A DNA stretch of 64,000 bases from Oscillospiraceae bacterium (GCA_015063695.1 SVTQ01000008.1:5116-69115), one strand, 5' to 3'. Positions 5,473-24,952 are shown, counted from the first letter of the stretch. The notes: generated by a model from the sequence alone, not told the origin. Program-made: numbers and translations.

Positions 5473-5705
5473 CAGACCGAAGACAAACTTGGTATAACGC
5501 AGATGTGAGAAGAAAAGATTCTTCAAAACAATTATTTCTTGATGAAATCATCTGACATGGAAAAGGCGGGCAAAATGCCCACCACATCTGCTTTTGGCGA
5601 GTTTTTCCCTCTACCATAGGCAACTATGCCTACGAGGAAAAAATCGCCAAATCTACCTGCGTTTCTCTCAGTCTGATCCAGAGTGCAGACTTTGTCTGCA
5701 CTCTG
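5473..5705 (+). mobile_element. Non-autonomous MITE, copy 1 (IS1182-like ends), with 22-bp target duplication
   Basis: Ends CAGACCGAAGACAAA / TTTGTCTGCACTCTG; identical hairpin AAACGCCCCCGAAGGGGCGCTT at 5451-5472 and 5706-5727; four more copies in the window. Confidence 0.85.
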
Positions 5706-5751
5706 AAACGCCCCCGAAGGGGCGCTTAATTTATTCTTTATTCTTTCTTCT

Positions 5752-11610: not shown

Positions 11611-12981
11611 ATGAAATACGACGTAATAATCATTGGAGCAGGCCCCGGAGGTATCTTCGCAGCTTACGAGCTTGTGCAAAAAGCTCCCGAGCTCAAAATT
11701 GCCGTTTTTGAAGCAGGACATGCCCTTAATAAGCGCAAATGCCCCATTGACGGAGATAAGATCAAAAGCTGTATAAGCTGTAAAAGCTGCAGTATCATGA
11801 GCGGTTTCGGAGGAGCAGGTGCATTCTCCGACGGGAAATACAATATCACCAACGATTTCGGCGGCACTCTCTACGAATATATCGGTAAGAAAAAAGCTCT
11901 TGAGCTTATGAGATACGTTGACGAGATCAACCTGAAATACGGCGGCGAAGGAACAAAGCTCTACACCACCGAAGGAACGCCCTTCAAAACAAAGTGTATC
12001 CAGAACGACCTTCATCTGCTTGAAGCATCAGTCCGCCACCTGGGAACAGACATCAACTACGTCGTTCTTGAAAACGTGTACGACTATCTAAAGGATAAAG
12101 TAAAGTTTTACTTTGATACCGCAGTCCTTTCCGTGCTCGACGAAAACGGAACGTATAAGATAATCTGCAAGGACGACACCTACGAATGCGATTACTGTAT
12201 TATTTCCGTGGGCCGAAGCGGAAGCAAATGGATGGAAACGGTCTGCAGAGATCTGAATATCACCACAAAATCCAACCGAGTTGATATCGGCGTGCGCGTT
12301 GAGCTTCCCGCGGCAGTTTTTGCTCATATCACCGACGAGCTTTACGAAAGTAAAATAGTTTACCGCACGGAAAAATACGGAGACAAGGTGCGTACCTTCT
12401 GTATGAATCCCAAGGGCGCAGTGGTAAGTGAAAATACAAACGGCATCATCACCGTTAACGGCCACAGCTACGAGGACCCCGCAAAGCAGACGAATAACAC
12501 AAACTTTGCCCTGCTGGTTGCAAAGCATTTCTCCGAGCCCTTCAAGGACTCCAACGGCTACGGCGAATCCATCGCCCGTCTCAGCAACATGCTTGGCGGC
12601 GGAGTTATCGTTCAGCGCTTCGGAGACCTTATCCGCGGCCGACGTTCAACCCAGAGCCGTATTGATGAAGCCTTCATCACCCCCACCCTGAGCGCAACTC
12701 CCGGAGACCTCAGCCTTGTTCTTCCCAAACGCCTCCTTGACGGTATCATAGAAATGATCTACGCCCTCGATAAGGTCGCCCCCGGTACGGCAAACGAAGA
12801 TACACTGCTTTACGGCGTTGAAGTCAAGTTCTACAACATGGAAGTTGAAGTTGACGAGCACCTTGAATCCAACCATAAGGGTCTCTATATCATCGGAGAC
12901 GGAAGCGGAATCACCCATTCCCTCTCCCATGCCTCCGCAAGCGGCGTCCACGTTGCACGAAACATCGCGAACAAATCATGA
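11611..12981 (+). CDS. NAD(P)/FAD-dependent oxidoreductase
   Basis: IIGAGPGG, GFGGAGAFSDGK, RTFCMNP, IGDGSG; start set to ATG 11611 (GAGG RBS). Confidence 0.85.
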   Translation: MKYDVIIIGAGPGGIFAAYELVQKAPELKIAVFEAGHALNKRKCPIDGDKIKSCISCKSCSIMSGFGGAGAFSDGKYNITNDFGGTLYEYIGKKKALELMRYVDEINLKYGGEGTKLYTTEGTPFKTKCIQNDLHLLEASVRHLGTDINYVVLENVYDYLKDKVKFYFDTAVLSVLDENGTYKIICKDDTYECDYCIISVGRSGSKWMETVCRDLNITTKSNRVDIGVRVELPAAVFAHITDELYESKIVYRTEKYGDKVRTFCMNPKGAVVSENTNGIITVNGHSYEDPAKQTNNTNFALLVAKHFSEPFKDSNGYGESIARLSNMLGGGVIVQRFGDLIRGRRSTQSRIDEAFITPTLSATPGDLSLVLPKRLLDGIIEMIYALDKVAPGTANEDTLLYGVEVKFYNMEVEVDEHLESNHKGLYIIGDGSGITHSLSHASASGVHVARNIANKS

Positions 12982-13015
12982 CCCTCGGCCGTGCCGATGA
13001 TTTTCGGAATACAAC

Positions 13016-13058
13016 AAAAAGGGATGTAAAAAACTCGTCGTTTTTTACATCCCTTTTT
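13016..13058. terminator. 19-bp perfect hairpin, probable bidirectional terminator
   Basis: AAAAAGGGATGTAAAAAAC-TCGTC-GTTTTTTACATCCCTTTTT between convergent genes. Confidence 0.7.
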
Positions 13059-13099
13059 CAGCACCAATAGGTGATATATATTTTTGGTATGGCGGCGGA

Positions 13100-13217
13100 G
13101 AACGATCTGCTTTGCAATTATCGTTTCTTTCTTTTCTTTGATGAGGTACTTATGAAGCTTTACGATTCGAGCGGCGAAAAGGAGGGATTTGTCGATTAAC
13201 GGATTTTCTTTTTTCAT
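13100..13217 (-). pseudogene. 3'-truncated four-helix-bundle protein gene
   Basis: First ~39 codons (MKKENPLIDKSLLFAARIVKLHKYL..QIV) nearly match 15766..16122, then homology stops at 13100. Confidence 0.85.
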
Positions 13218-13235
13218 AACTTTCACCTCATTTTT

Positions 13236-13359
13236 AAAGAATAAAGAAAAAAGAATAAAGAATAGAGAATAAATATGAAGCGGCGAAGCCGCCCTATTTT
13301 TATTTCTTATTTATTCTCTATTCTTTCTTCTTTTAGGCGAGCTTGCCTCGCCGCTTCTC
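13236..13359 (-). repeat. Heptamer-repeat leader (5x AAAGAAT-like plus inverted array)
   Basis: AAAGAAT AAAGAAA AAAGAAT AAAGAAT AGAGAAT at 13236-13270; near-identical to 16141-16264. Confidence 0.85.
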
Positions 13360-13403
13360 TGGCGCGCCCGGCGGGAATCGAACCCACAACTAACCCTTAG
13401 GAG
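13360..13403 (-). repeat. tRNA-Arg(CCT) 3'-half fragment (att-like site)
   Basis: Matches 16265-16308 from the anticodon loop to CCA, with 3 differences in the acceptor strand. Confidence 0.85.
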
Positions 13404-13612
13404 ATACTGAGGAAAACGGCTTTCGTGTTCCTCATAATACCTAAAAATCCCCTGCTGTCAGGGGATTTTTAAGGTTAATATGTTATCTTGTGTTACACCG
13501 TTACCGCTGGTTTTATGCTGTTTTACATTGTCCGATTAGCAATCTATTAGCAAGACTCGTGAATTTAGGGTGGTGGTAATGAGCGTATTGTATTTCATCA
13601 TATGTTATAAAA

Positions 13613-15418
13613 TCACTCTTTAACTATAATCATCCTACCCATAATTAAATGATTAGACTTATCGAATATGTTCTCTTTTTCCAAAGTTTTAAAATCCACT
13701 TTTTTGTTAACTTCGGTAATAGGAATATCTTTTCTTATAACATAATACTTCGGGATATATATTTCGGGACATTTGCTTCTTATTAACGCGTCCAATTCAT
13801 TGATAAGCTCTTCGTTTATATCATTTTCAGGTACAATATGAGCAACAGGGACTTCTCTTTCTTCCGTGTCATCATATTTAACACAACAACAATCGTTAAT
13901 TAAAGAATGAGATTTTATAGTGTCCTCGATAGTTCCGAGCCACACTTTACCACCACTTCGTGTAAGCATTCGTTTTGCTCGACCGCAATGATAAACTCTG
14001 CCTTCTTTATCCATATAACACAAATCGTCGGTATGTAACCACACCTTACCATCTTTATGTATACGAAGCATTTTCTTCGTTTCGTCAGGATTCTTGATAT
14101 ACCCCTTCATCACGGTAGGACCAGAGATGCAGAGTTCGCCAATTTCACCATACTTCTTTTCTTCTAACTTTTCAGGGTCAAATTCATCATATGGCATATA
14201 ATCAAAGACACCTATTTCAGCATACTTCAAAGGGATGCCTATACTACCTTTCTTGAGTGCAGGTTTTATAGAGTATATTACACCGGCCATACTTTCTGTA
14301 AGACCATATCCCTGCTTAATCCAAGTATCACAATTTTTAGATTTTGAAAACTCGTGATAAGCAATTTCCTCTTCTTCGTGCAACTTATCTCCACCCGAAA
14401 TAGGATCTGTTGCAAAACAAAGGTCATCTATTCCGGATTCACGAATACTTTTAAACAAAATTGGTCCTGCCATAAACACATTGGGACGATGTTCTTTAAT
14501 CAAAGAAGGATATTCTTCAATTGAGAATTTGGAAATCAAATTAACCGATACGCCACAGCACATGAGATTATAAGTAGCGTTAAAGTAATATGAAACAGCA
14601 GGCGGAAGAATACTCATAGATGTCTTGGGCGCATAAAACTCCATTTCGCTATTCATAAAAGAACATGCGCTCGCAATAATGCTATCGTTAGTTGTTTCAA
14701 CGCCTTTTGCGCCGCCAGTCGTTCCACCGGTATACATAATAACGCTTACATTTTGTCCGCCGTTATTAATTGTTTGGTAATCTGTGCCCTTGTAAAGTTT
14801 TTTCCACTTGTTATATTTTAAAAACTGCGGGGAAAGCTTTATTGAATTTCCAGACTGACCAACAATGCTTTTAAAGTTTTCTATAAACAGTTTAATTACT
14901 GCCATCTTGCTCATTGATACAGTTACTGGAACCGTAATAACTTTATTTATCGTTTTAGAAAGCCCCAAATCCATAGCTCCAACAACATTTTGAAGAATGA
15001 ATGAGATGTCAGATACAAATAGGTATTTTGACTCTGTTAACTCACACATAAATTTAATTCTTTCAGGACTCTCGTCAAATTTAATAAGATTTGTCGTAGC
15101 CCCCATCTTACAAAGCGCAAACCAAAAGAATATTGCTTCAGGAACATTAAGGAATACAAAGGAAACCGTATCTCCTTCTTTAATACCCATAGCCGTCAAA
15201 CGAGCAATAGTTTTCTCAACTTCTGTTTTTATGTCATTTGTTGTGTATTTGTTTCCGTAGTATTCCAACAAGGGGTGATTATAGTCTTTTGTAATCTCCA
15301 GAAAAAAGTCATAGCAGTTCTTTCCAAACGGGATTTCGGGCAAAGAGGAATCTTTGTACCATTTCATCCAAGGTTTGTCAATAGAGGCATAACCTGTAAG
15401 TTTTTGTTCTGTGTTCAT
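13613..15418 (-). CDS. AMP-dependent acyl-CoA synthetase/ligase (ANL superfamily)
   Basis: YTGGTTGGAKG P-loop, QGYGLTES, GELCISGPTVMKGY, WLHTDD; start set to ATG 15418 (AAGGAG RBS). Confidence 0.88.
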   Translation of the reverse strand: MNTEQKLTGYASIDKPWMKWYKDSSLPEIPFGKNCYDFFLEITKDYNHPLLEYYGNKYTTNDIKTEVEKTIARLTAMGIKEGDTVSFVFLNVPEAIFFWFALCKMGATTNLIKFDESPERIKFMCELTESKYLFVSDISFILQNVVGAMDLGLSKTINKVITVPVTVSMSKMAVIKLFIENFKSIVGQSGNSIKLSPQFLKYNKWKKLYKGTDYQTINNGGQNVSVIMYTGGTTGGAKGVETTNDSIIASACSFMNSEMEFYAPKTSMSILPPAVSYYFNATYNLMCCGVSVNLISKFSIEEYPSLIKEHRPNVFMAGPILFKSIRESGIDDLCFATDPISGGDKLHEEEEIAYHEFSKSKNCDTWIKQGYGLTESMAGVIYSIKPALKKGSIGIPLKYAEIGVFDYMPYDEFDPEKLEEKKYGEIGELCISGPTVMKGYIKNPDETKKMLRIHKDGKVWLHTDDLCYMDKEGRVYHCGRAKRMLTRSGGKVWLGTIEDTIKSHSLINDCCCVKYDDTEEREVPVAHIVPENDINEELINELDALIRSKCPEIYIPKYYVIRKDIPITEVNKKVDFKTLEKENIFDKSNHLIMGRMIIVKE

Positions 15419-15433
15419 TTTTATACTCTCCTT

Positions 15434-15660
15434 AAAAATAAAAAGTGCGGCTACCGAAGTAACCGCACAAAAACGCAAACTCCGATAGTCGCCAAACTAA
15501 CTCAATATGAAATGGGCGTAAAAGCACACATATATATTGTTGGAATCTGCATTTTATCAAATTCATTACAATATATATGTATGACAAAAAAGAGCATAAT
15601 ATCCTATAAAAAAGAAAAATACACCCAATTATACACATATTAAGTTAGTTTGGCACTATC
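15434..15660 (-). promoter_or_regulatory. Structured 5' leader ending in an intrinsic terminator (candidate attenuator)
   Basis: Stems 15636-15660/15484-15509 and 15568-15580/15528-15540; terminator GTGCGGTTAC-TTCG-GTAGCCGCAC plus T-tract just before the RBS. Confidence 0.6.
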
Positions 15661-15765
15661 AGTTTACCACAAATTGCAACAAAATACAATAAAAAAAGAA
15701 AAAACTCACCACAAAAGGTAAAAAAATAGAAAGAACCGAAAACATTACGCTTTCGGCACTTTACG

Positions 15766-16122
15766 TTACTTATTTTCTTTAGATGTATTGAGTGTTGAAA
15801 CAAGAATCTTTTTGATTTCAAGACAATCTTTAAGAAGGGAGTCGCCTTCTTTTTTCGTTATATATTCCGATAAAACAAGAAGGCGGAGCCAATACTCCGT
15901 TTCGGCAGTTTCTTTAAGAGATATTTGAAGTTTGGCAATAAAATCCGGCTTACTTATACCGTATATCGCTTCGTTGGCATTTGCGCCGATCGATGTAGCA
16001 CTGCGAACGATCTGCTTCGCAATTATCGTTTCTTTCTTATCTTTGGTTAGGTACTTGTGGAGCTTTACGATTCGAGCGGCGAAAAGGAGGGATTTGTCGA
16101 TTAACGGATTTTCTTTTTTCAT
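15766..16122 (-). CDS. Four-helix-bundle protein (TIGR02436 / 23S-IVP / Avd-like fold)
   Basis: KQIVRSATSIGANANEA..S..DFIAKLQISLKETAETEYWLRLL signature; ATG 16122 after AAGGTG. Confidence 0.92.
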   Translation of the reverse strand: MKKENPLIDKSLLFAARIVKLHKYLTKDKKETIIAKQIVRSATSIGANANEAIYGISKPDFIAKLQISLKETAETEYWLRLLVLSEYITKKEGDSLLKDCLEIKKILVSTLNTSKENK

Positions 16123-16140
16123 AACTTTCACCTTATTTTT

Positions 16141-16264
16141 AAAGAATAAAGAAAAAAGAATAAAGAATAATGAATAAATATGAAGCGGCGAAGCCGCCCT
16201 ATTTTTATTTCTTATTTATTCTCTATTCTTTCTTCTTTTAGGCGAGCTTGCCTCGCCGCTTCTC
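16141..16264 (-). repeat. Heptamer-repeat leader between tRNA-Arg and the four-helix-bundle gene
   Basis: Five heptamers at 16141-16175, inverted array at 16201-16239, GAAGCGGCGA/TCGCCGCTTC pair at 16182-16191 and 16253-16262. Confidence 0.85.
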
Positions 16265-16339
16265 TGGCACCCCCAGCGGGAATCGAACCCACAACTAACC
16301 CTTAGGAGGGGTTTGTTATATCCATTTAACTATGGGGGC
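16265..16339 (-). tRNA. tRNA-Arg (anticodon CCT)
   Basis: GCCCCCA acceptor stem, anticodon loop CT-CCT-AA, GGTTCGATTCC T-arm, encoded CCA. Confidence 0.95.
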
Positions 16340-16379
16340 GTATTCACCTCCGCATTTCTGCGAAGGATTCTTTGCATCT

Positions 16380-16406
16380 GTAGGGGACGACGTCCTCGAC
16401 GTCCCG
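16380..16406 (+). repeat. GTAG-type REP variant
   Basis: GTAGGGGACGACGTCCTCGACGTCCCG. Confidence 0.7.
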
Positions 16407-16423
16407 TTTACTTAAGATTTTCC

Positions 16424-16807
16424 TCAGTCAAGCTTCGCGTAAGTCTTCTTAACAAAGGACTCGCACTTTATCACAAATCTCTCGTGCTCACCCTCGCCGA
16501 TAAGACCCTTTTCGTCGAAAGCCTTAACGGAAAAAACGAGACGTCTGCCGTCAACCTCTTCGAGAGTACACTCAGCAGTGATATTCATTCCCACGGGAGT
16601 TGCCGCAAGGTGTTTAACGTTTACAAAAGTACCAACGGTGGAAAGGCCTTCCTCAAGGTGAGGCTGAACACATGTGTAGCAGGTCTTTTCCATAAGAGCT
16701 ATCATTGAAGGAGTGGAAAAAACGCGGAGAGTTCCGCTTCCCATTGCGGCGGCAGTGTTGGTTTCATCTGCCATAACGGTTTCTGTGTGTCTGAGTCCCT
16801 TTTCCAT
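16424..16807 (-). CDS. Hotdog-fold thioesterase (FlK-like)
   Basis: GSGTLRVFSTPSMIALME, TVGTFVNVKHLAATPVG, GEGEHERF; start set to ATG 16807 (GGAGG). Confidence 0.85.
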   Translation of the reverse strand: MEKGLRHTETVMADETNTAAAMGSGTLRVFSTPSMIALMEKTCYTCVQPHLEEGLSTVGTFVNVKHLAATPVGMNITAECTLEEVDGRRLVFSVKAFDEKGLIGEGEHERFVIKCESFVKKTYAKLD

Positions 16808-16897
16808 ATATAACCTCCGGCAAAGAACCCCAAAACAGCGAAAAATGTTTGACTTTAGCATGTGATGAAGGCACCGTTTTCTGTTGGCTCTTGGCTA

Positions 16898-16945
16898 CTC
16901 CTCATCCACCGCTAAAGCGATCCCCCTTCTCCCTCAGGAGAAGGC
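16898..16945 (-). repeat. Double-hairpin intergenic repeat (CCTTCTCCTGAGGGAGAAGGGGGA...GGTGGATGAGGAG family)
   Basis: Reverse complement matches 43446-43534 and 62474-62572. Confidence 0.7.
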
Positions 16946-17107
16946 AGACTTCGGGGGCTCCGCAAATTTTCAAAAATACATTAAAAGTATATCACACCTG
17001 CAGAAGCTTTTCAAGTATATTTTTCCAAAATCCTAAAATGAATATGACCCTTCCCTTTTTTCGAGCTTTTGTGAGCAAAACTTTGGAAGATAATAACAAA
17101 AATCCTG

Positions 17108-17136
17108 TTGACTTGATATTTGAAAGGTACTATAAT
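17108..17136 (+). promoter_or_regulatory. Sigma-A promoter of htpG-birA-pgm
   Basis: TTGACT-17bp-TATAAT. Confidence 0.75.
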
Positions 17137-17178
17137 ATATAGTGAGATATAATATATAATTCCACGGAGGCGATATAA

Positions 17179-19041
17179 TTGAACAACATAGAACGCGGCG
17201 GAATAAGCGTTGAAGCCGCCCACATTTTCCCCATAATCAAAAAATGGCTCTATTCCGACAAGGAGATATTCCTTCGCGAAATAGTTTCCAACTCCTGCGA
17301 TGCAGTTACGAAGCTCCGCCGTCTTATCTCTCTCGGCGAAGTTAAAGATATAGAAGACAAAGATTTCAAGGTAACGGTAACACTCGACAAAGAAGCAGGC
17401 ACTATCACCGTCTGCGATAACGGTATCGGCATGACCGTGGACGAGCTGAAGAGATATATCTGTCAGATAGCACTCTCGGGAGCCCTTGAATTCATCGAAA
17501 AATACGAGGGCGAAAACGGTGATGCGGCAGGTATCATCGGCCACTTCGGCCTCGGCTTCTACTCATCATTTATGGTCAGCTCCACCGTTGAAGTTATAAC
17601 AAAGTCCTACACGGGCGCACCTGCCGTTAAATGGGTCTGCGCCGATGCAGGAGAATACGAGATAGAAGAAAACTGCGACACCGACGAGCTCTTTGACGAC
17701 AAGGGCACCGCGGTTATCATGCACGTAAGCGACGAGGGCAAGGAGTTCCTTGAAGCTTCTGCCCTTCGCGACATTCTCGATAAATACTGCGCCTTCATGC
17801 CCGTAGAAATCTACTTTGACGACGGCGAGGAGAAAAGCTGCGACTGCGAAGAAGAAAACTGCGAGCACAAACCCACGCCTATAAACGACACCTGCCCTCT
17901 GTGGCTGAAAAACCCCTCGGACTGCGAAGCCGAGGACTACAAGAAGTTCTACACCAAGGTGTTCCATGACTTCCGCGAGCCCCTCTTCCACATTCACATC
18001 AAAGCGGACTACCCCCTCAACTTCAAGGGTATCCTCTACTTCCCCAAAATAACAAACGAGTTTGAAAGCCTTGAGGGTCAGGTAAAGCTCTACTACAATC
18101 AGGTCTTCGTTTCCGATAACATAAAAGAAGTCATTCCCGAATATCTTTTAATGTTACGCGGTGTCCTTGACTGTCCCGAGCTTCCCCTCAACGTTTCAAG
18201 AAGCTACCTTCAGAACAGCGGCTACGTCACAAAGATATCCGCTCACATCGTAAAGAAGGTTGCCGACAAGCTGAATTCCATGTTCAACCTTGACCGTGAG
18301 GGCTTTGAAAAGATATGGAACGACGTCAAGACCTTCGTTGAATACGGATGTATGCGCGACAGAAAGTTCTATGACAGAGTTAAAAATTCCATAGTTTACC
18401 GTCTCTGCGACGGAAGCTATGCTACCCTTGCGGAGTATCTTGAGAGCGCCAAGGACAAGCACGAAAACAAGATCTACTACACCTCCGACAAAACAAAGCA
18501 GGCATCCTACATCTCCATGCTCGAGGCACAGGGTATCAAGGTTGCAGTTCTTGACAAGTTCATTGACACACAGTTTATAAACACCGTTGAAATGAACGAG
18601 GCAGGCGTTAAGTTCTGCCGAGTTGACTCCGAGCTTGCCGATGCGGTAAAGGGCGGCGATGCCTCTGAGATCGAAGCCGTTTCCGAGGTATTCAAAAAGA
18701 TAATTCCCGAAGAGACAAAGATAACCTTTGAGAGCTTCAAGGACGAGGGCGTTCCTGCAATTCTGAACATCAGCGAGCAGTCACGCAGAATGGAAGACAT
18801 GATGAAGATGTACTCCGCCATGGGCGAGGAAGCCCCCATGAGCTTCCCCACCGAGGCAACGCTTATTATCAACAGTAACAATGCCCTTATAAAGAAGCTT
18901 GAAGGAAGCACCGACGAGGCGATGAAGGAAATAATTGCAAAGCATATCTATAACCTCTGCCTTATCAGTCAGCGCGGACTTTCCGCAGAGGAGCTGAAGT
19001 CTTTCCTCTCCGACAGCTTCGAAATACTCTCCATGCTCTGA
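17179..19041 (+). CDS. htpG: Molecular chaperone HtpG (Hsp90)
   Basis: LYSDKEIFLREIVSNSCDA, DNGIGM, IGHFGLGFYS, LPLNVSR; TTG start. Confidence 0.96.
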   Translation: MNNIERGGISVEAAHIFPIIKKWLYSDKEIFLREIVSNSCDAVTKLRRLISLGEVKDIEDKDFKVTVTLDKEAGTITVCDNGIGMTVDELKRYICQIALSGALEFIEKYEGENGDAAGIIGHFGLGFYSSFMVSSTVEVITKSYTGAPAVKWVCADAGEYEIEENCDTDELFDDKGTAVIMHVSDEGKEFLEASALRDILDKYCAFMPVEIYFDDGEEKSCDCEEENCEHKPTPINDTCPLWLKNPSDCEAEDYKKFYTKVFHDFREPLFHIHIKADYPLNFKGILYFPKITNEFESLEGQVKLYYNQVFVSDNIKEVIPEYLLMLRGVLDCPELPLNVSRSYLQNSGYVTKISAHIVKKVADKLNSMFNLDREGFEKIWNDVKTFVEYGCMRDRKFYDRVKNSIVYRLCDGSYATLAEYLESAKDKHENKIYYTSDKTKQASYISMLEAQGIKVAVLDKFIDTQFINTVEMNEAGVKFCRVDSELADAVKGGDASEIEAVSEVFKKIIPEETKITFESFKDEGVPAILNISEQSRRMEDMMKMYSAMGEEAPMSFPTEATLIINSNNALIKKLEGSTDEAMKEIIAKHIYNLCLISQRGLSAEELKSFLSDSFEILSML

Positions 19042-19042
19042 T

Positions 19043-19792
19043 ATGGCGCAGGATATTTTACTTCTTAAAGAACAGCTTGGAGAAGACTTTTTACCCATCC
19101 TGTTTGAGAATATCGGCTCCACAAACGTAAAGCTGCTTGAAGACGTGAGGAGCGGAAAAGCAGACGTTGGCACCGTGTATATCGCAGAAAGACAGAGTGC
19201 AGGGCGCGGCAGGCTCGGCAGAAGCTTTATTTCCCCAAAAGGCGGAATATATATGAGTTTTTGCACGGGTGACGTGGAATACGGTCTCTCCACCGTTATC
19301 TGCGCCGTAGCTGTTGCCGATACCTTTAAAGACTTCGGTTTTTCACCCGAGGTAAAATGGGTCAACGATATACTTATAGGCGGCAAAAAGGTATGCGGAA
19401 TTCTCGCCCAAAGCCTTGGCGACGGCAAAAGAGCGGTCATAGGAGTTGGGCTGAACCTCAGAACAGAGGATATCCCCGAAGAGCTTTCGGAAATCGCCAT
19501 AGGGCTCGACGTTTTCGGTGACGTTCCCCGTCCCGAAATCATTGAAGCCGGTATTCTGAAAAGCTATAAAGCGCTTTCGGTCTCCATGCCCGACGGTCGG
19601 GAAAATATCATAGAAAAATACAAAAGCTACATGACCCTTTTAGGCGAGAAAATAACCGTCCTTCAGACGGGGGAAACTCTCACCGCAAAGGACATTGACA
19701 AGGACGGCGCGCTTATGGCGGTGTCCGAAAACGGAAAAACCGTCCGCCTCGCATCAGGCGAAATATCAATAAGAAAAATTACTACCAAATAA
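19043..19792 (+). CDS. birA: Biotin-protein ligase lacking the N-terminal HTH
   Basis: GSTN, QSAGRGRLGR, KWVND, KVCGIL, IGVGLN. Confidence 0.9.
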   Translation: MAQDILLLKEQLGEDFLPILFENIGSTNVKLLEDVRSGKADVGTVYIAERQSAGRGRLGRSFISPKGGIYMSFCTGDVEYGLSTVICAVAVADTFKDFGFSPEVKWVNDILIGGKKVCGILAQSLGDGKRAVIGVGLNLRTEDIPEELSEIAIGLDVFGDVPRPEIIEAGILKSYKALSVSMPDGRENIIEKYKSYMTLLGEKITVLQTGETLTAKDIDKDGALMAVSENGKTVRLASGEISIRKITTK

Positions 19793-19803
19793 AGGGAGGC
19801 AAT

Positions 19804-21522
19804 ATGGAAAACTACAGAATTCAGTATGAAAAATGGCTGGCAAGCGACAAGGTTGCAGAGGACGTAAAGGCAGAGCTCCGTGCTCTTTCCGACGAGGACG
19901 TCAAGGTCCGCTTCTCCGAGTACATGAGCTTCGGCACAGCAGGTCTTCGCGCAGAAATGGGCGCAGGCACCGCATTCATGAACACCTACACCGTTGCCCA
20001 CGCAACAATGGGCCTTGCGGCACTTATCTGCAAGCTGGGCGAAGAAGCAAAGGCAAGAGGTGTCGTTATCGCATACGACAGCCGTAACAATTCCGCCGAG
20101 TTATCTCAGAGATGTGCAGAGGTCCTCTCAGCCGAAGGAATCAAGGTATACCTCTTTGAGTCCCTCAGACCCACCCCCGTTCTCTCCTTTGCAATAAGAG
20201 AGCTTGGATGTGTTGCGGGTATCAATATTACCGCATCCCATAACCCCAAAAAGTACAACGGCTACAAGGCGTACTTCGAAGACGGCGCACAGCTTTCTCC
20301 CGACAATGCAAAGACGGTTTCCGATGCCATAGCTGAGATAGATATCTTTGACGGCATTCCCACCCCCGATATGGCAAAGCCCGAGCTTATCATCTCCGTC
20401 GGCGCTGACCTTGACGAAAAATACCTTGCAAAGGTTCTTGCAGAGGCAGTCAATCCCGATGCTATCCCTGCAGTTGCAGACGAGCTTAAAATAGTTTACA
20501 CTCCCCTTCACGGCGCAGGAACGGTCCTCGTTCCCGAAATGCTCCGCCGCGCAGGTCTCAAGATGCTCTATCCCGTTGAAAGTCAGATGGAGCCCGACGG
20601 CGACTTCCCCACAGTAGTATTCCCCAATCCCGAATTCCCCGCCGCCTTTGAAGAAGGCATCAAGGTTGCAGAAAAGGAAAACAGTGACCTTATCGTTGCA
20701 ACGGACCCCGATGCTGACAGAGTAGGCGTTATGGCAAGAGATAAGAGCGGCGCTTTCAAGTGCATCACGGGCAACCAGATGGGCGCGCTCATTCTCGACT
20801 ACGTTATCACCGCCTTCAAGGAAAGCGGCAAGATGCCCGATATGCCCTACGCGGTAAAGACTATCGTTACCTCCGAAATGGCGGCTGAGATCTGCCGTTC
20901 AAACGGTGTGAAGATGTACAACGTTCTCACGGGATTTAAGTTCATCGGTGAAGTAATAAAGAACCACGAGGAAGCAGGAGAGGGCACCTTCCTTCTCGGC
21001 TTTGAAGAGAGCTACGGCTACCTTAAGGGCACCTACGCACGCGATAAGGACGCAGTTGTTGCTTCCCTTCTTATCTGCGAAATGGCGGCATTCTATAAGG
21101 CGAAGGGCATGACCCTTTCCGATGCCCTTGATGCACTCTTCGAAAGATACGGCTACTTCCGCGAAAGCGTTACAAACATCACAATGGATACTCCCGACGG
21201 CAAGGAAAGAATGGCGGCTATGATGGCTTCTCTCAGAGAGAACCCCATCACAAAGCTGGGCGAAAAGACTATCGTTGAATTCCGCGACTATAAGAGCGGA
21301 AAGGTCATCGACCTGAAGAGCGGTGCCGAAAGCGAAACGGGACTTCCCTCCTCCGACGTTCTCTATTACGTAACAGAAACGGGCGACGTCGTAGTTGTAC
21401 GCCCCTCCGGCACAGAACCTAAGGTCAAGATCTACGTTCTCACAAGAGGCGAAACAGACGAAGGCGCTATCGCAAGCGCCGACGGCTGCCTTGAAGAGAT
21501 CAAAAAGATCATGCTCGCATAA
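19804..21522 (+). CDS. pgm: Phosphoglucomutase/phosphomannomutase
   Basis: FGTAGLR, ITASHNP, DPDADR, GFEESYG, RPSGTEPK. Confidence 0.9.
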   Translation: MENYRIQYEKWLASDKVAEDVKAELRALSDEDVKVRFSEYMSFGTAGLRAEMGAGTAFMNTYTVAHATMGLAALICKLGEEAKARGVVIAYDSRNNSAELSQRCAEVLSAEGIKVYLFESLRPTPVLSFAIRELGCVAGINITASHNPKKYNGYKAYFEDGAQLSPDNAKTVSDAIAEIDIFDGIPTPDMAKPELIISVGADLDEKYLAKVLAEAVNPDAIPAVADELKIVYTPLHGAGTVLVPEMLRRAGLKMLYPVESQMEPDGDFPTVVFPNPEFPAAFEEGIKVAEKENSDLIVATDPDADRVGVMARDKSGAFKCITGNQMGALILDYVITAFKESGKMPDMPYAVKTIVTSEMAAEICRSNGVKMYNVLTGFKFIGEVIKNHEEAGEGTFLLGFEESYGYLKGTYARDKDAVVASLLICEMAAFYKAKGMTLSDALDALFERYGYFRESVTNITMDTPDGKERMAAMMASLRENPITKLGEKTIVEFRDYKSGKVIDLKSGAESETGLPSSDVLYYVTETGDVVVVRPSGTEPKVKIYVLTRGETDEGAIASADGCLEEIKKIMLA

Positions 21523-21565
21523 CGAAGCGCGGCAATATATCGCGTTTGCAAAGCAAACATATCGC

Positions 21566-21594
21566 AAAAGCTCCCAAACAAAGGGAGCTTTTTT
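21566..21594 (+). terminator. Intrinsic terminator after pgm
   Basis: AAAAGCTCCC...GGGAGCTTTTTT. Confidence 0.7.
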
Positions 21595-21736
21595 GATTTA
21601 TTCCTCCGGCTACGGCAGTAGTTGCAAATTTTGCAACTACTGAATATCTCGCTGTTTCAGTTATTATCTACAGTCAGTTGCAAAAAACAAAAATATATGC
21701 TACAATAAACCAGAATAAAAAAGGAGTGACAGAAAA

Positions 21737-22141
21737 ATGGCAAAAAATAACACTGAAGCATATAAGTGGTCCGACAGAAAAAGAATAATCTTCGGTCTCC
21801 CTTGGTCCTTCACAAGATATATGCTCACAGAGGAAAAGCTCATAATCGACACGGGCTTCTTTAACCGTACAGAAGACGAGATACGTCTCTACAGAATTCT
21901 CGATATAACCCTTAAGAGAAGCTTCGGAGAAAGACTTTTCGGCCTCGGCACCATCCACTGCTGCAGCGGCGACAAGACACAGGGAGAGTTTGACATCAAA
22001 AGAATTAAAAACCCCCGCGAAGTAAAGGAAATGCTCTCCGACATGATAGAGAGAGAACGTATGGAACGCCGCGTTGGAGCAAGAGAATTTATCGACACAG
22101 ACGACGGCGAGGACTTCGAGGGTGAGAACTGTGAACTTTAA
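21737..22141 (+). CDS. Bacterial PH-domain protein
   Basis: WSDRKRIIFGLPWSFTRY...EIRLYRILDITLKRSFGERLFGLGTI pattern; AAGGAG RBS. Confidence 0.75.
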   Translation: MAKNNTEAYKWSDRKRIIFGLPWSFTRYMLTEEKLIIDTGFFNRTEDEIRLYRILDITLKRSFGERLFGLGTIHCCSGDKTQGEFDIKRIKNPREVKEMLSDMIERERMERRVGAREFIDTDDGEDFEGENCEL

Positions 22142-22219
22142 ATTTAACACTAATATATAAAACTCGGCAGAAAAAATATTTTTCTACCGATTTGTGATAT
22201 TGTATAGCAGGTAATAAAG

Positions 22220-22738
22220 GTGGATGAAGAAATCAAACTTCCCAAACGAAAGCGAAACCGAATAAAAGATTATGACTACAGTTCATGCGGCACATATTTT
22301 ATAACGATATGTACGAAAGATCGAAAAAACATATTTTGGAATAAAAATCATCCGTATTACGTAGGGGAGGATATCATCCTCCCGTTTGATAAAACGGTAT
22401 TATCACCTTACGGTAAAATTGCAGATGGTGCAATCAATGCAATTCCCGAGCATTATCCGCATATTGAATTATTACAATACATTATTATGCCTAATCACGT
22501 TCATATGATATTGTATATTCCGTGTAAGGACGGGAGGATGATATCCTCCCCTACGAGCATTCCGACGGCCGTTGGGCAAATGAAACGTTATGTTTCAAAA
22601 AAGATCGGCTTTGCAATTTGGCAAAGATCATTTCATGATCATGTGATACGAAATAAAAAAGATTATGAAAAGATTTCGAAATACATCCATGAAAACCCGC
22701 TCATATGGCGATACGATTGTTTTTACTGCGAAGAATAA
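22220..22738 (+). CDS. REP-associated tyrosine (HUH/Y1) transposase (RAYT)
   Basis: RKRNRIKDYDYS..YFITICT, MPNHVH (HUH), WQRSFHDHVIR, YIHENP catalytic Tyr. Confidence 0.88.
   Translation: MDEEIKLPKRKRNRIKDYDYSSCGTYFITICTKDRKNIFWNKNHPYYVGEDIILPFDKTVLSPYGKIADGAINAIPEHYPHIELLQYIIMPNHVHMILYIPCKDGRMISSPTSIPTAVGQMKRYVSKKIGFAIWQRSFHDHVIRNKKDYEKISKYIHENPLIWRYDCFYCEE
22361..22554. repeat. Inverted pair of GTAG REPs inside the RAYT coding sequence (22361-22384 and 22531-22554)
   Basis: GTAGGGGAGGATATCATCCTCCCG and its exact reverse complement, translated as VGEDIILP and GRMISSPT. Confidence 0.85.
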
Positions 22739-22820
22739 AACTATTTGAAGGTCGTGTCGGTTCGAGCGTTGTAAGTGCAGTTTAGCACAACGGACTTAAA
22801 AACAGTCCACCGGACTGTTT

Positions 22821-23052
22821 CAGAGTGTAGACAAAGTCTACACTCTGGGGCAGACTGAGAGAAACGCAGGTAGATTTGGCGATTTTTTCCTCGTCGGCGT
22901 AGTTATCTACGGTAGAGGGAAAAACTCGCCAAAAGCAGATGTGGCGGGCTTTTGCCCGCCTTTTCCATATCAAATAATTTCATCAAGAAATATTTACTTC
23001 CAACAAAGTTTTCTGCTCACATCTGCGTTATACCAAGTTTGTCTTCAGTCTG
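22821..23052 (-). mobile_element. MITE copy 2 with 21-bp target duplication
   Basis: AAACAGTCCACCGGACTGTTT at 22800-22820 and 23053-23073. Confidence 0.85.
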
Positions 23053-23301
23053 AAACAGTCCACCGGACTGTTTTTGCCACGCCTACGGCATGTGGCCGTC
23101 CTTTCGATTCCCCGTCAAATACGGGTCAAAGCAAAAAGAAAAGCACCTCGCTTGAGGTGCCTTCTTTTTGGTGACCCGTGGGGGTTCACTGTGGATTGAA
23201 GGTCGTGCCGAAATTCATTTCGGCGTTCACGGTCGTGTCGGTTCGAGCGTTGTAAGTGCAGTTTAGCACAACGGACTTAAAAACAGTCCACCGGACTGTT
23301 T

Positions 23302-23533
23302 CAGAGTGTAGACAAAGTCTACACTCTGAGGCAGACTGAGAGAAACGCAGGTAGATTTGGCGATTTTTTCATCGTCGGCGTAGTTATCTACGGTAGAGGA
23401 AAAAACTCGCCAAAAGCAGATGTGGCGGGCTTTTGCCCGCCTTTTCCATATCAAATAATTTCATCAAGAAATATTTACTTCCAACAAAGTTTTCTGCTCA
23501 CATCTGCGTTATACCAAGTTTGTCTTCAGTCTG
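23302..23533 (-). mobile_element. MITE copy 3 with 21-bp target duplication
   Basis: Same hairpin at 23281-23301 and 23534-23554. Confidence 0.85.
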
Positions 23534-23696
23534 AAACAGTCCACCGGACTGTTTTTGCCACGCCTACGGCATGTGGCCGTCCTTTCGATTCCCCGTCAAA
23601 TACGGGTCAAAGCAAAAAGAAAAGCACCTCGCTTGAGGTGCTTTTCTTTTTGGTGACCCGTGGGGGGTCACTGTGGCTTGAAGGTCGTGCCGAAGT

Positions 23697-24215
23697 TTAA
23701 TTTAGTAATTCAAAGTCTTCTTTCTTTATACGAAAGCTCATTTGTGTAGTTTTTTCTCCGGTAAAACAGTTTGTTTCTGTTTCATCACCGTCGGGATGAC
23801 GCACAAATCCTGTCTTGAGCAATACTTTCATACTATATTTATTATCGCAATAACAGCCTGCGGATATCTCATTATATTCGTAATGATTAAATATATATGA
23901 TAATGCCAATCTAAAAGACACGGTTCCGTAACCCATGTTTCTATATTTCGGATATATCCAGATAGCTAAGTCAGGACAAACCTCGTCTAAACCTAATCTG
24001 AGGACACCAACGTTTTCATTGCTATATTTATCTACTACAACGACCCAAAACTTAAAACGGTTTATATCATAATCTGAAAACTGCTCAAACGTATCAGTAA
24101 AAATACCGTTATATCCTTTTTGTGTATCAATGTCTTTCCAGCACATGTACATATCATGATCGTCGCCGTGTGTATACGGTCTCAATCCGATTCTTTCATT
24201 TTCAATGATGAACAC
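23697..24215 (-). CDS. GNAT-family (RimJ/RimL-like) N-acetyltransferase, low GC
   Basis: IENERIGLRP start, IWIYPKYRNMGYGT acetyl-CoA motif, DNKYSMKVLLKTGF. Confidence 0.82.
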   Translation of the reverse strand: MFIIENERIGLRPYTHGDDHDMYMCWKDIDTQKGYNGIFTDTFEQFSDYDINRFKFWVVVVDKYSNENVGVLRLGLDEVCPDLAIWIYPKYRNMGYGTVSFRLALSYIFNHYEYNEISAGCYCDNKYSMKVLLKTGFVRHPDGDETETNCFTGEKTTQMSFRIKKEDFELLN

Positions 24216-24239
24216 ATTTATTCTCCTTGTGCACGAAGT

Positions 24240-24608
24240 TTATTTTTTGTTTTTTGCTACATTGCTTTTTGCTGTGTTTATAGAAGTAATAAGTAAGCGT
24301 TTGATTTCAATACAATCACCTAATAGGGAGTTGTATAGATTTTGTTCGATATAGTCTGATAAATAGAGTAATTTTATCCAATATTCAGTTTCAGCAGTTT
24401 CTTTTAATGCAATATGAAGTTTAGATATAAAGTCAGCATGACTTTGACCATAACTCGCTTCATTAATGTTTGCCCCTATACTCGTTCCGCTGCGAATTAT
24501 TTGCTTGGATATCGTCAGCCCTTTTTTATTCTTGATCAAATAATCATGAAGTTTAATTATTCTTGCCGCAAAAGCAATTGACTTATCAATCAATATGTTT
24601 TCTTTCAT
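24240..24608 (-). CDS. Four-helix-bundle protein (second intact paralogue)
   Basis: KQIIRSGTSIGANINEA..S..DFISKLHIALKETAETEYW; start set to ATG 24608. Confidence 0.92.
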   Translation of the reverse strand: MKENILIDKSIAFAARIIKLHDYLIKNKKGLTISKQIIRSGTSIGANINEASYGQSHADFISKLHIALKETAETEYWIKLLYLSDYIEQNLYNSLLGDCIEIKRLLITSINTAKSNVAKNKK

Positions 24609-24630
24609 TATAATCACTTCCTTTGGTAAA

Positions 24631-24659
24631 ATTATAGCAAAATTAGAATTCTGTGTCAA
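24631..24659 (-). promoter_or_regulatory. Consensus sigma-A promoter for the four-helix-bundle and GNAT genes
   Basis: TTGACA-17bp-TATAAT on the minus strand. Confidence 0.8.
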
Positions 24660-24733
24660 ATCTAATTTGGAGAATTCATTACTTTCTATCACATCCGGTA
24701 CTTGGATTAAGATGCTTGACTATCGGTTATGCT

Positions 24734-24877
24734 ATTATTCATTAGCCGCAGGCGACTTCGTTATTCATTTTTCTTTATTCATTTGAAAATCCGTTCTATA
24801 TGAAAAATGAATAATGAATAGTGAATAATGAATAATACAAACAAAAAACCGTCCTCTTTCGAGAACGGATTTTCGTT
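24734..24877 (-). repeat. Heptamer-repeat region downstream of tRNA-Glu
   Basis: TATGAAA AATGAAT AATGAAT AGTGAAT AATGAAT at 24799-24833; inverted array at 24734-24784; GAAAATCCGTTCT/AGAACGGATTTTC pair at 24785-24797 and 24862-24874. Confidence 0.8.
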
Positions 24878-24952
24878 TGGTGACCCGTGGGGGAATCGAA
24901 CCCCCGTTACCGCCGTGAAAGGGCGGTGTCTTAGCCGCTTGACCAACGGGCC
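24878..24952 (-). tRNA. tRNA-Glu (anticodon TTC)
   Basis: GGCCCGTTGGTCAAGCGGCTAAGACACCGCCCTTTCACGGCGG...GGTTCGATTCCCCCACGGGTCACCA. Confidence 0.96.

Follow-up and report, generated by a model that had tools for sequence, protein, structure and literature searches.

In a 64,000-nt stretch of DNA from an Oscillospiraceae bacterium (GCA_015063695.1 SVTQ01000008.1:5116-69115; this whole stretch is referred to as the window, and positions are given in its coordinates), small genes for four-helix-bundle (4HB) proteins of the PF05635 family lie behind tRNA genes, and the spacer between tRNA and gene is occupied by short repeated words and their reverse complements. The question raised by this locus is what such a spacer, hereafter called the head, represents, and how its repeats may act. 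The original prediction had described the head as four segments in the order A-B-A′-B′, in which A pairs with A′ and word array B with array B′, and had explained it by counting, with five heptamers for the five subunits of a pentameric protein. Our comparison with related genomes upholds the layout and speaks against the count. It is well supported that the window contains three copies, one of them a relic and the other two intact, of a compact cassette that moves horizontally and is composed of a head and a PF05635 gene, and we are highly confident of the assignment to this cassette class. The class is widespread in gut bacteria and is not special to the window, which carries its contiguous-heptamer variant.

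Head architecture before PF05635 genes

The comparison set consisted of 69 PF05635 loci from 41 related genomes, oriented by the gene. For 66 loci, 280 nt or more of upstream sequence was available, and we searched it for a 7-mer present three or more times (arm 1 hereafter) and, behind this array, for the reverse complement in three or more copies (arm 2). Such a pair of arrays was found in 50 of the 66 loci and in none of the 66 after shuffling; upstream of randomly chosen long open reading frames (ORFs) of the window's own genome, it occurred in 4 of 150 regions. Three features were found among these heads. One is that a perfect complement of at least 10 nt between the start of arm 1 and the centre (A:A′) is present in 31 of the 50 loci, as compared with 36 of the 1990 cross-locus pairings. 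The A-B-A′-B′ order is thus conserved among cassettes of unrelated sequence. The covariation of A and A′ that had been proposed is also real: the sequence of A varies from clade to clade while its complement is kept, with compensatory differences seen, for example, between L029 and L032.

Another feature is the siting behind tRNA genes. An intact tRNA gene on the same strand ends within 450 nt of the start codon in 31 of the 64 loci with at least 300 nt upstream, and 13 amino-acid specificities are represented. The window's own assembly has 31 tRNA genes (ARAGORN) and four PF05635 genes, three of which stand directly behind a tRNA (Arg, Glu and Trp). Anchoring to tRNA genes is therefore borne out. 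Cassettes and heads accumulate immediately behind tRNA genes and terminators. The further idea that the module targets tRNA 3′ ends does not hold throughout: roughly half of the loci are sited elsewhere, as are many gene-less arrays.

The last feature concerns the arrays themselves. Small GC hairpins part the words (ATGATGT, GTGATAT, GTGAAAT, CGATATG and others) in most relatives; these hairpins vary in sequence but keep their pairing. Hairpins of at least 4 bp were found in 74 of the 91 unique inter-word segments of arm 1 and in 86 of the 114 of arm 2, as against about 16 and 27, respectively, in shuffled segments. The words are spaced by 13-40 bp in these hairpin-spaced arrays and by 7 bp in the contiguous ones, and heads of mixed form exist (L017, with spacings of 40/7/20; L070; C13:14372). 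The words grade into each other around RTGAWRT, and single-linkage grouping chains most of them into one class. Because the two kinds of head have in common the A:A′ closure, the position before sister gene clades and the siting behind tRNAs, the contiguous-heptamer head and the hairpin-spaced (Gut-1-type) head are shown, at the level of sequence comparison, to be two forms of one architecture. The arm order may be reversed within one protein clade, with the reverse-complement word coming first, as in L021 and L070 versus L017; the Arg and Glu loci of the window present the same contrast.

The genes behind the heads are uniform in kind. PF05635 is a large family, first noted in 1993 within 23S rRNA genes, and it occurs in 25 of the 41 related genomes. 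To our knowledge, its only member with an assigned role is Avd, the accessory protein of diversity-generating retroelements (DGRs). The Arg and Glu ORFs of the window match PF05635 with E-values of 1.7e-24 and 9.9e-26 (86.5 and 90.5 bits; cut-off 33.8) and TIGR02436 with 2.2e-27 and 9e-29 (95.4 and 99.9 bits; cut-off 24). Judged from their sequences, the proteins are small and lysine-rich. The conserved family motif is GxxRxxxSxxxNxxE (PMC3936711); both window proteins have RxxxSxxxNxxE (RSATSIGANANE and RSGTSIGANINE), with Q in place of the leading G. Eighteen genes of the 23S rRNA-intervening-sequence protein type have been recorded in cas loci (PMC3936711). A placement of PF05635 among the HEPN families was dropped, as the main text of PMC3710099 names neither 23S, intervening, Avd, S23 nor DGR.

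In the protein tree, both window genes and the other contiguous-heptamer cassettes fall within one 17-row clade (support 94/85). The cassettes L005, L007, L030 and L057, in which the arms enclose the gene, are further members of this clade. Proteins that are 91-94% identical were found in different bacterial families: L083 (G026) and L084 (G037), L023 (G037) and L065 (G036), and L031 (G026) and L033 (G024). This near-identity points to horizontal transfer of whole cassettes. The word tends to go with the protein: a common word was found in 22 of the 23 locus pairs with at least 80% protein identity and in 20 of the 613 pairs below 50%. In 20 hand-picked pairs, word columns were 86% identical and other columns 71%.

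The Arg and Glu heads and the number of repeats

All cassette features of the window are on the minus strand. The Arg cassette is anchored by tRNA-Arg(CCT) at 16265-16339 (ARAGORN; Rfam tRNA, 63 bits). Its segment A (16250-16262) begins 2 nt past the CCA and overlaps a local hairpin (stem 16252-16257/16241-16246; 16241-16262 for the two together, from the inverted pair, the sequence and the fold) that has no T-run behind it. Arm B (16202-16239) is a purine-rich imperfect heptamer array, in which Tandem Repeats Finder (TRF) recognized 3.4 copies of period 7 at 16215-16238. It is complementary to B′: the inverted pairs of 31-37 nt assigned to arm B match at 78-87%, and those of 31-37 nt found for B/B′ at 78-94%. 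Segment A′ (16182-16194), the complement of A over 13 nt (92%), has a small hairpin of its own (16182-16199), and this hairpin with the T-rich arm behind it is terminator-like (site 16199-16183). Arm B′ (16140-16178) is that T-rich arm, with 5.6 tandem heptamers (TRF period 7, 87% matches). It ends about 6 nt ahead of the ribosome-binding site of the 4HB gene, which encodes 118 aa from the ATG at 16122 (15766-16122; ORF 15766-16131). A promoter scan of the spacer between tRNA-Arg and the 4HB gene gave no promoter-like site.

The Glu cassette stands behind tRNA-Glu(TTC) at 24878-24952 (ARAGORN, Rfam), the final gene of a Met-Glu-Glu tRNA cluster with a promoter-like site at 25262-25234. Here, segment A (24862-24874) is the 5′ arm of a terminator-like hairpin (24839-24874 as an inverted-pair feature), which forms 8 pairs at 24849-24868 and is followed by the T-run TTTTTTGTTT. 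Across the two loci, A begins 2-3 nt past the CCA, so that its predicted position just behind the tRNA and over a local hairpin holds. Arm B (24800-24836) has 5.3 tandem heptamers (TRF period 7, 90% matches), A′ (24785-24797) is the exact 13-nt complement of A (inverted pair, 100%), and B′ (24733-24784) is a complementary, less regular word array (inverted pairs of 28 nt at 86% and 12 nt at 100%; a 14-nt period in 2.0 copies by TRF). Downstream of both arms, the promoter scan gave a sigma-70-like promoter at 24659-24631 that matches the consensus at 12 of 12 positions (TTGACA, 17 nt, TATAAT) and carries a TG extension. The 4HB gene behind it encodes 122 aa (24240-24608; ORF 24240-24692). As RNA, the Arg and Glu leaders fold with z = −5.35 and −6.17, respectively, and 0 of 200 shuffled sequences folded equally well.

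The relic lies at 13100-13404. By alignment, it comprises the 3′ part of a tRNA-Arg, an A-B-A′-B′ head and about 125 nt of the start of a 4HB gene; 13100-13399 is a 300-nt direct copy of 16005-16304, 96% identical, and the direct repeat at the Arg locus thus includes the 3′ part of the tRNA. The tRNA portion of the relic starts in the anticodon loop and has three changes in the acceptor strand, and its heptamer array (13235-13273) has 5.6 copies of period 7 by TRF. The ORF at 12885-13226 gave no Pfam match. It had been stated that all three 4HB genes of the window lie behind a tRNA 3′ end; this is right for the two intact genes, and the third is the truncated relic. Between the relic and the intact Arg cassette lies an AMP-binding, acyl-CoA-synthetase-like gene (13613-15478; PF00501, E 2.4e-46; PF13193).

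With 5.6, 5.6 and 5.3 copies, that is, five full units and a partial one, "exactly five" heptamers is a fair reading of the three arrays of the window. The inverted array that was said to accompany them is present as a complementary arm, but it is less regular at both intact loci. According to the original prediction, the 4HB protein is a homopentamer in which each subunit takes one heptamer, in the manner of TRAP, and which thereby switches between A:A′ and B:B′, either for regulation of the gene or for movement of the module. Besides the window arrays, three observations agree with this. The closest solved relative, PDB 2RLD (E 7.8e-33 with the Arg protein), was deposited with 5 chains; the orthologous Arg cassette of a genome of the same genus, G006, has arrays of 5.4-5.9 units; and at the Arg locus, the repeats lie between a terminator-like A′ hairpin and a segment A that might serve as antiterminator by pairing A:A′.

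The wider set does not bear out the number five. In hairpin-spaced heads, arm 1 has 3, 4, 5 and 8 words in 13, 22, 4 and 1 loci, and arm 2 has 3, 4, 5 and 6 words in 6, 22, 11 and 1 loci; in contiguous heads, arm 1 has 4 and 5 words in 6 and 4 loci, and arm 2 has 3, 4 and 5 words in 2, 4 and 4 loci. The 39 period-7 TRF arrays adjoining 4HB genes range from 2.1 to 8.3 copies with a median of 4.3, and their rounded copy numbers are 4 (13 arrays), 5 (10), 2 (6), 6 (5), 3 (4) and 8 (1). Overall, there are 2-8 units per arm with a mode of 4, and the Rfam consensus of Gut-1 has 4 words. A broad spread of this kind is what the original prediction itself had named as evidence against one repeat per subunit. 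Nor do the five heptamers occupy an equivalent place at the two loci: on the gene strand, the regular five-unit T-rich array is the gene-proximal B′ at Arg and the tRNA-proximal B at Glu.

The G006 Arg cassette bears on the same point. Its protein is 91% identical to that of the window (107 of 118 residues), and A, its hairpin and A′ are kept, while the heptamer unit is altered in both arms together; the arms are still complementary (81-100%). A one-subunit-one-word code is hard to reconcile with this, because the unit differs between nearly identical proteins. The TRAP/trp leader of Bacillus subtilis, as TRAP is generally understood, is similar in that a ring-forming protein family stands by short tandem repeats and alternative pairings are possible. 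It differs in that the proteins are unrelated, repeat number is untied to subunit number, and the order of elements is unfit for attenuation at Glu. There, the repeats are preceded by the terminator-like hairpin and followed by the cassette's own predicted promoter, which makes TRAP-type attenuation impossible. An attenuator is possible at the Arg locus only, where A:A′ could compete with the A′ hairpin terminator. Taken as a whole, the pentamer-counting model is extremely improbable.

Possible roles of the head: folded nucleic acid, recombination site or operator

The explanation that we favour, although only tentatively and at somewhat less than even confidence, is that the head does not count subunits but works as a folded nucleic acid, by which the cassette gene is set apart from the tRNA transcript. 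Upon read-through from the tRNA, the head would fold either as a domain closed by A:A′ or as a long B:B′ hairpin. This fold would stop or mark the read-through RNA, and the maturation of the tRNA and the expression of the cassette gene would be kept apart. The 4HB gene would then be expressed from its own promoter right behind the last word, as at Glu, or, where there is no room for a promoter, as at Arg, by regulated read-through. The iterated words would be probable protein contact sites, most plausibly for the cassette's own 4HB oligomer, with no rule of one repeat per subunit.

Two groups of data are relevant to this proposal. First, a promoter-like site (at least 9 of 12 positions) follows the last inverted word in 24 of the 35 loci with room to scan, so that most cassette mRNAs would start behind the head. 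The −35 hexamer begins close to the end of the word, at −1 to +3 nt, in 13 of the 24 loci, and the distance from the −10 element to the ATG in promoter-bearing loci is 18-30 nt. Second, strand-specific signals were found in the hairpin-spaced arms. On the gene strand, the hairpin stems of arm 1 have G-T and A-C mismatches at 20:1, and the sense strand of arm 1 is the better-folding one in 25 of 40 loci. The excess of G-T marks selection on one strand of this polarity, which would most simply be RNA. Together with the joint change of both heptamer arms in G006, it speaks for selection on pairing, in part at the RNA level.

Several observations weigh against such a reading. The hairpin stems of arm 2 have no G-T excess (G-T to A-C, 10:14), and in 26 of 40 loci it is the antisense strand of arm 2 that folds better. 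Mirror symmetry extends to the loops, with TTC/TGC/TAC in arm 1 and GAA/GCA/GTA in arm 2. Because of the mirror loops and the opposite strand bias, the arms look like two inverted copies of one element, with an RNA-type constraint clear in arm 1 only; the loops and the behaviour of arm 2 fit a DNA-level palindrome as well or better. Fold energies of the contiguous-heptamer type gave no consistent strand bias (sense better in 5 loci, worse in 4). At Glu, the terminator-like hairpin precedes the arrays, and little RNA may extend past it, which weakens an RNA role there. The concerted change of both arms, as seen in G006, can arise by template switching in quasi-palindromes without selection. Finally, the link between word and matching protein within a genome is mixed: arrays were found in 5 of 5 genome-by-word cells with a cognate 4HB gene and also in 4 of 5 without one, GTKATAT arrays are present in 5 of 5 genomes of which 2 have a cognate gene in sight, and CGATAT has 43 matches in G026, where no cognate gene was seen; these genomes are 93-98% complete.

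A serious rival is that the head is a DNA-level site, either folded DNA or a recombination site of the arm type, akin to attC or to attP arms, by means of which a recombinase acting in trans or a host enzyme would bring cassettes into tRNA 3′ ends, with RNA uninvolved. The mobility of the cassette is relevant here. In G006, the sister species, a plain terminator and then a repeat element stand behind tRNA-Glu, and the cassette is absent. This 3′ flank aligns with 23530-23700 of the window, beyond the cassette and a GNAT acetyltransferase gene (23697-24215, minus strand; PF13302, E 1.8e-13) that also belongs to the segment missing in G006. Ahead of the displaced flank, 18 nt of the end of the tRNA-Glu region are repeated at 23649-23666 (minus strand, from the alignment with G006), followed by the displaced native terminator. 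The tRNA copy is at 24876-24893, and a further copy is at 23167-23184. From this alignment, the segment of about 1.2 kb with the head, the 4HB gene and the GNAT gene is an insertion relative to the sister species; the empty site and the duplicated tRNA end thus substantiate the mobility that had been suspected. Furthermore, the sequences directly past the CCA of tRNA-Glu differ in all five congeners (L048 in G004, L044 in G006, L045 in G001, L046 in G003, and 24840-24878 in the window), and this flank looks like a hot spot of turnover. The five states are the heptamer cassette, a plain terminator, a one-armed gene-less Gut-1-like array (G004) and two other sequences.

The empty site, the duplicated tRNA-Glu end and the flank that differs in each congener would all be expected of a recombination site. 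So would the Arg relic, with its start in the anticodon loop and its different acceptor strand, the serial or tandem heads behind tRNAs (L028, L033; C30, C39), the mirror symmetry of the arms with their loops, and the horizontal transfer indicated by the protein phylogeny. Elements that integrate into tRNA genes resemble the cassette in two respects: the tRNA 3′ end recurs as a direct repeat on the far side of the insert, and relatives have an empty site. The difference is that no PF00589 integrase was found in the window or on its contig; the 91%-complete genome has a single one, on another contig (C34:25808), and serine recombinases were not searched for. No match to the reverse transcriptase family PF00078 was found in the whole of this 91%-complete genome. 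In addition, roughly one in two cassettes and the majority of gene-less heads lie away from tRNAs, and a double-stranded site does not predict the 20:1 strand-specific mismatches of arm 1. The duplicated tRNA-Glu fragment is also part of a 481-nt tandem duplication and need not mark site-specific recombination. Repeats of the tRNA tail were found downstream in 4 of the 31 tRNA-linked loci, in which only short flanks were covered. On balance, the DNA-level site is a rather unlikely explanation, if one to be taken seriously.

The 481-nt tandem repeat occupies 22745-23720 (2.0 copies, 96%; units 22816-23056 and 23301-23538). A segment of it of about 240 nt has dozens of dispersed copies in G006 and in G002 of the same genus. 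The segment has the same small palindrome at both ends and thus looks like a miniature inverted-repeat transposable element (MITE).

A further explanation is that the word arrays are duplex DNA operators at which the 4HB oligomer, or another regulator, controls the cassette promoter. That the −35 element is touched or overlapped by the last inverted word in 13 of the 24 promoter-bearing loci would suit an operator, and so would the co-divergence of the words with the protein and the small size and lysine-rich composition of the latter. However, a spacing of 13-40 bp in the hairpin-spaced arrays or of 7 bp in the contiguous ones gives no constant helical phasing, and a duplex site leaves the selection for inter-word hairpins unexplained. 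Many heads are also far from any 4HB promoter, and the Arg cassette has no promoter to be regulated. We consider the operator quite unlikely.

The arrays may also have no function and be by-products of slippage and of quasi-palindrome template switching in AT-rich spacers by hairpin terminators. That the heptamer units change fast and in concert, and that their copy numbers vary widely, would then be expected, and heptamer repeats are over-represented in bacterial genomes according to the available part of PMC4692102. Slippage, however, cannot make the hairpins of unrelated sequence that are kept between conserved words. The four-part architecture with its clade-specific A:A′ helix recurs in 31 of the 50 cassettes, the head is in a fixed register with the promoter, and arrays and gene co-occur at the genome level. 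An absence of function is thus very unlikely, and the folded nucleic acid that keeps tRNA and cassette gene apart remains our preferred, if tentative, reading.

Gut-1, gene-less heads and related systems

The hairpin-spaced form of the head has a name in Rfam. Arm 1 of L029 matches Gut-1 (RF01706) on the gene strand with 56.8 bits, above the gathering score of 50, and arm 2 matches it on the opposite strand with 29.6 bits. At the level of sequence and pairing model, therefore, the hairpin-spaced head is Gut-1, an orphan RNA motif since 2010. The contiguous heads of the window gave no Gut-1 match at the gathering score, and L001-L004 gave none at E-values up to 1. Gut-1 is like the heads of related cassettes in that a repeated word alternates with hairpins of free sequence, and it comes from the same kind of organisms, gut bacteria. 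It differs from the heads of the window, in which the heptamers are contiguous and have no hairpins between them. In the available text of the original description, Gut-1 is a stand-alone non-coding RNA known from human gut sequence only (Weinberg et al. 2010, PMC2864571), and a partner gene, an inverted second arm and a link to tRNAs are not mentioned in that text (PMC2864571).

Gut-1-type heads form a dispersed intergenic repeat family, most copies of which have no gene. Gut-1 matches far outnumber PF05635 genes: there are 18 in the window's own genome (E up to 0.01) and up to 58 in relatives. Searches with three-word patterns gave 9-25 matches per genome for GTKATAT and 0-51 for CGATAT, as against 0-1 for the reversed controls. 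At least three Gut-1 matches were found in 20 of the 25 genomes with PF05635 and in 0 of the 16 without it, among which kin are not independent; outside the window's own family (16 families), the numbers are 4 of 6 and 0 of 10.

Gene-less heads take several forms. Single arms in the window's own genome lie in the 3′ and 5′ flanks of ordinary genes. At C30:9430-9990 and C39:83990-84420, behind tRNA-Gln and tRNA-Ser, respectively, there are tandem pairs of complete, two-armed heads that differ in their words and lack a 4HB gene. The heads of a pair are linked by a conserved piece of about 57 nt, which on the opposite strand reads as a truncated ORF start; four truncated copies of this ORF start, of 11-30 codons, exist in the genome. 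The window itself has a gene-less heptamer array at 5700-5770 (TTTATTC in 4.6 copies at 5730-5761) that resembles arm B′ of the Arg locus and is directly preceded by a small GC hairpin together with the 3′ portion of the MITE-like element described above. At C7:45990-46130, a gene-less hairpin composed of a purine-rich arm, a small hairpin and a pyrimidine-rich arm stands between a leader ending in a terminator-like hairpin and a gene that resembles pheS by eye. In G021, single-arm GTGAAAT arrays (L090-L098, L101-L103) are modules of larger mosaic repeats rich in G- and C-runs. Recent spread is suggested by the many near-identical copies located at contig ends. No target-site duplications were recognized at 14 copies of the G021 arrays, which are complex mosaics with boundaries that are not definable.

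Gut-1 is one of three relatives of this cassette class; the others are the ORF-bearing intervening sequences (IVSs) of 23S rRNA and, by way of life, the REP-like dispersed repeats. The ORF-bearing IVSs of Leptospira and Coxiella, from which PF05635 takes its name, encode proteins of the same family as the window genes. The stem of an IVS is cut by RNase III. In both systems, the gene lies in or beside a stable-RNA gene together with long complementary arms, and in L005, L007, L030, L057 and L089, although not in the window, the gene lies between the arms as well. The window genes differ in standing behind tRNA-Arg and tRNA-Glu, with no rRNA in the window, in having both arms upstream of the gene and built of iterated words, and, at Glu, in having a predicted promoter of the cassette's own.

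The REP/REPIN elements with their RAYT genes are also dispersed, hairpin-forming intergenic repeats in tens of copies per genome, complete copies of which flank or head one small gene, and repeats and gene co-occur across genomes. The 4HB protein, in contrast, has no known catalytic activity and is unrelated to the Y1 transposases, and word arrays also occur where no matching 4HB clade was seen. The window's own genome has a separate REP/RAYT-like system. The window ORF at 22220-22738 (plus strand) has a weak match to the Y1 transposase family PF01797 (E 9.6e-4) and 68.6 bits with NF047646, below its cut-off of 80; GTAG-type REP-like hairpins lie inside this ORF and elsewhere in the genome adjoin CGATAT word arrays.

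The DGR accessory protein Avd has the common fold, both proteins being small basic helical bundles, and PF05635 is described as resembling Avd in the available part of PMC10053308. A DGR is nevertheless different: no reverse transcriptase was found in the window's own genome at 91% completeness, no pair of template and variable repeats was seen, although none was looked for, and Avd genes are not reported with word arrays in the portions of the DGR literature at hand. An excess of heptamer repeats in bacterial genomes has been discussed, in the accessible portions of PMC4679880 and PMC4692102, with no mention of the PF05635 family. A connection of PF05635 with such arrays or with the flanks of tRNAs was not found in the literature searched; more on the contexts of Gut-1 may be given in the supplement to Weinberg et al. 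2010.

A broader view, unlikely as it stands, is that PF05635 proteins are dedicated trans-acting partners of word-array repeats, be these heptamers, Gut-1-type words or the arms of IVSs, in the way in which RAYT is the partner of REPINs. Recognition of the iterated word by the oligomer would take place on single strands of RNA or DNA, with extruded hairpins aligning the words side by side, and the contiguous and hairpin-spaced forms would thereby be equivalent. The protein would maintain, spread or exploit the repeats at stable-RNA genes. The window unites the contiguous-heptamer and Gut-1-type heads as one architecture and turns a vague association into one that can be tested at the bench. 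If the partner view is true, it would account at once for three orphans, namely the heptamer repeats of bacteria, the Gut-1 motif and the IVS protein.

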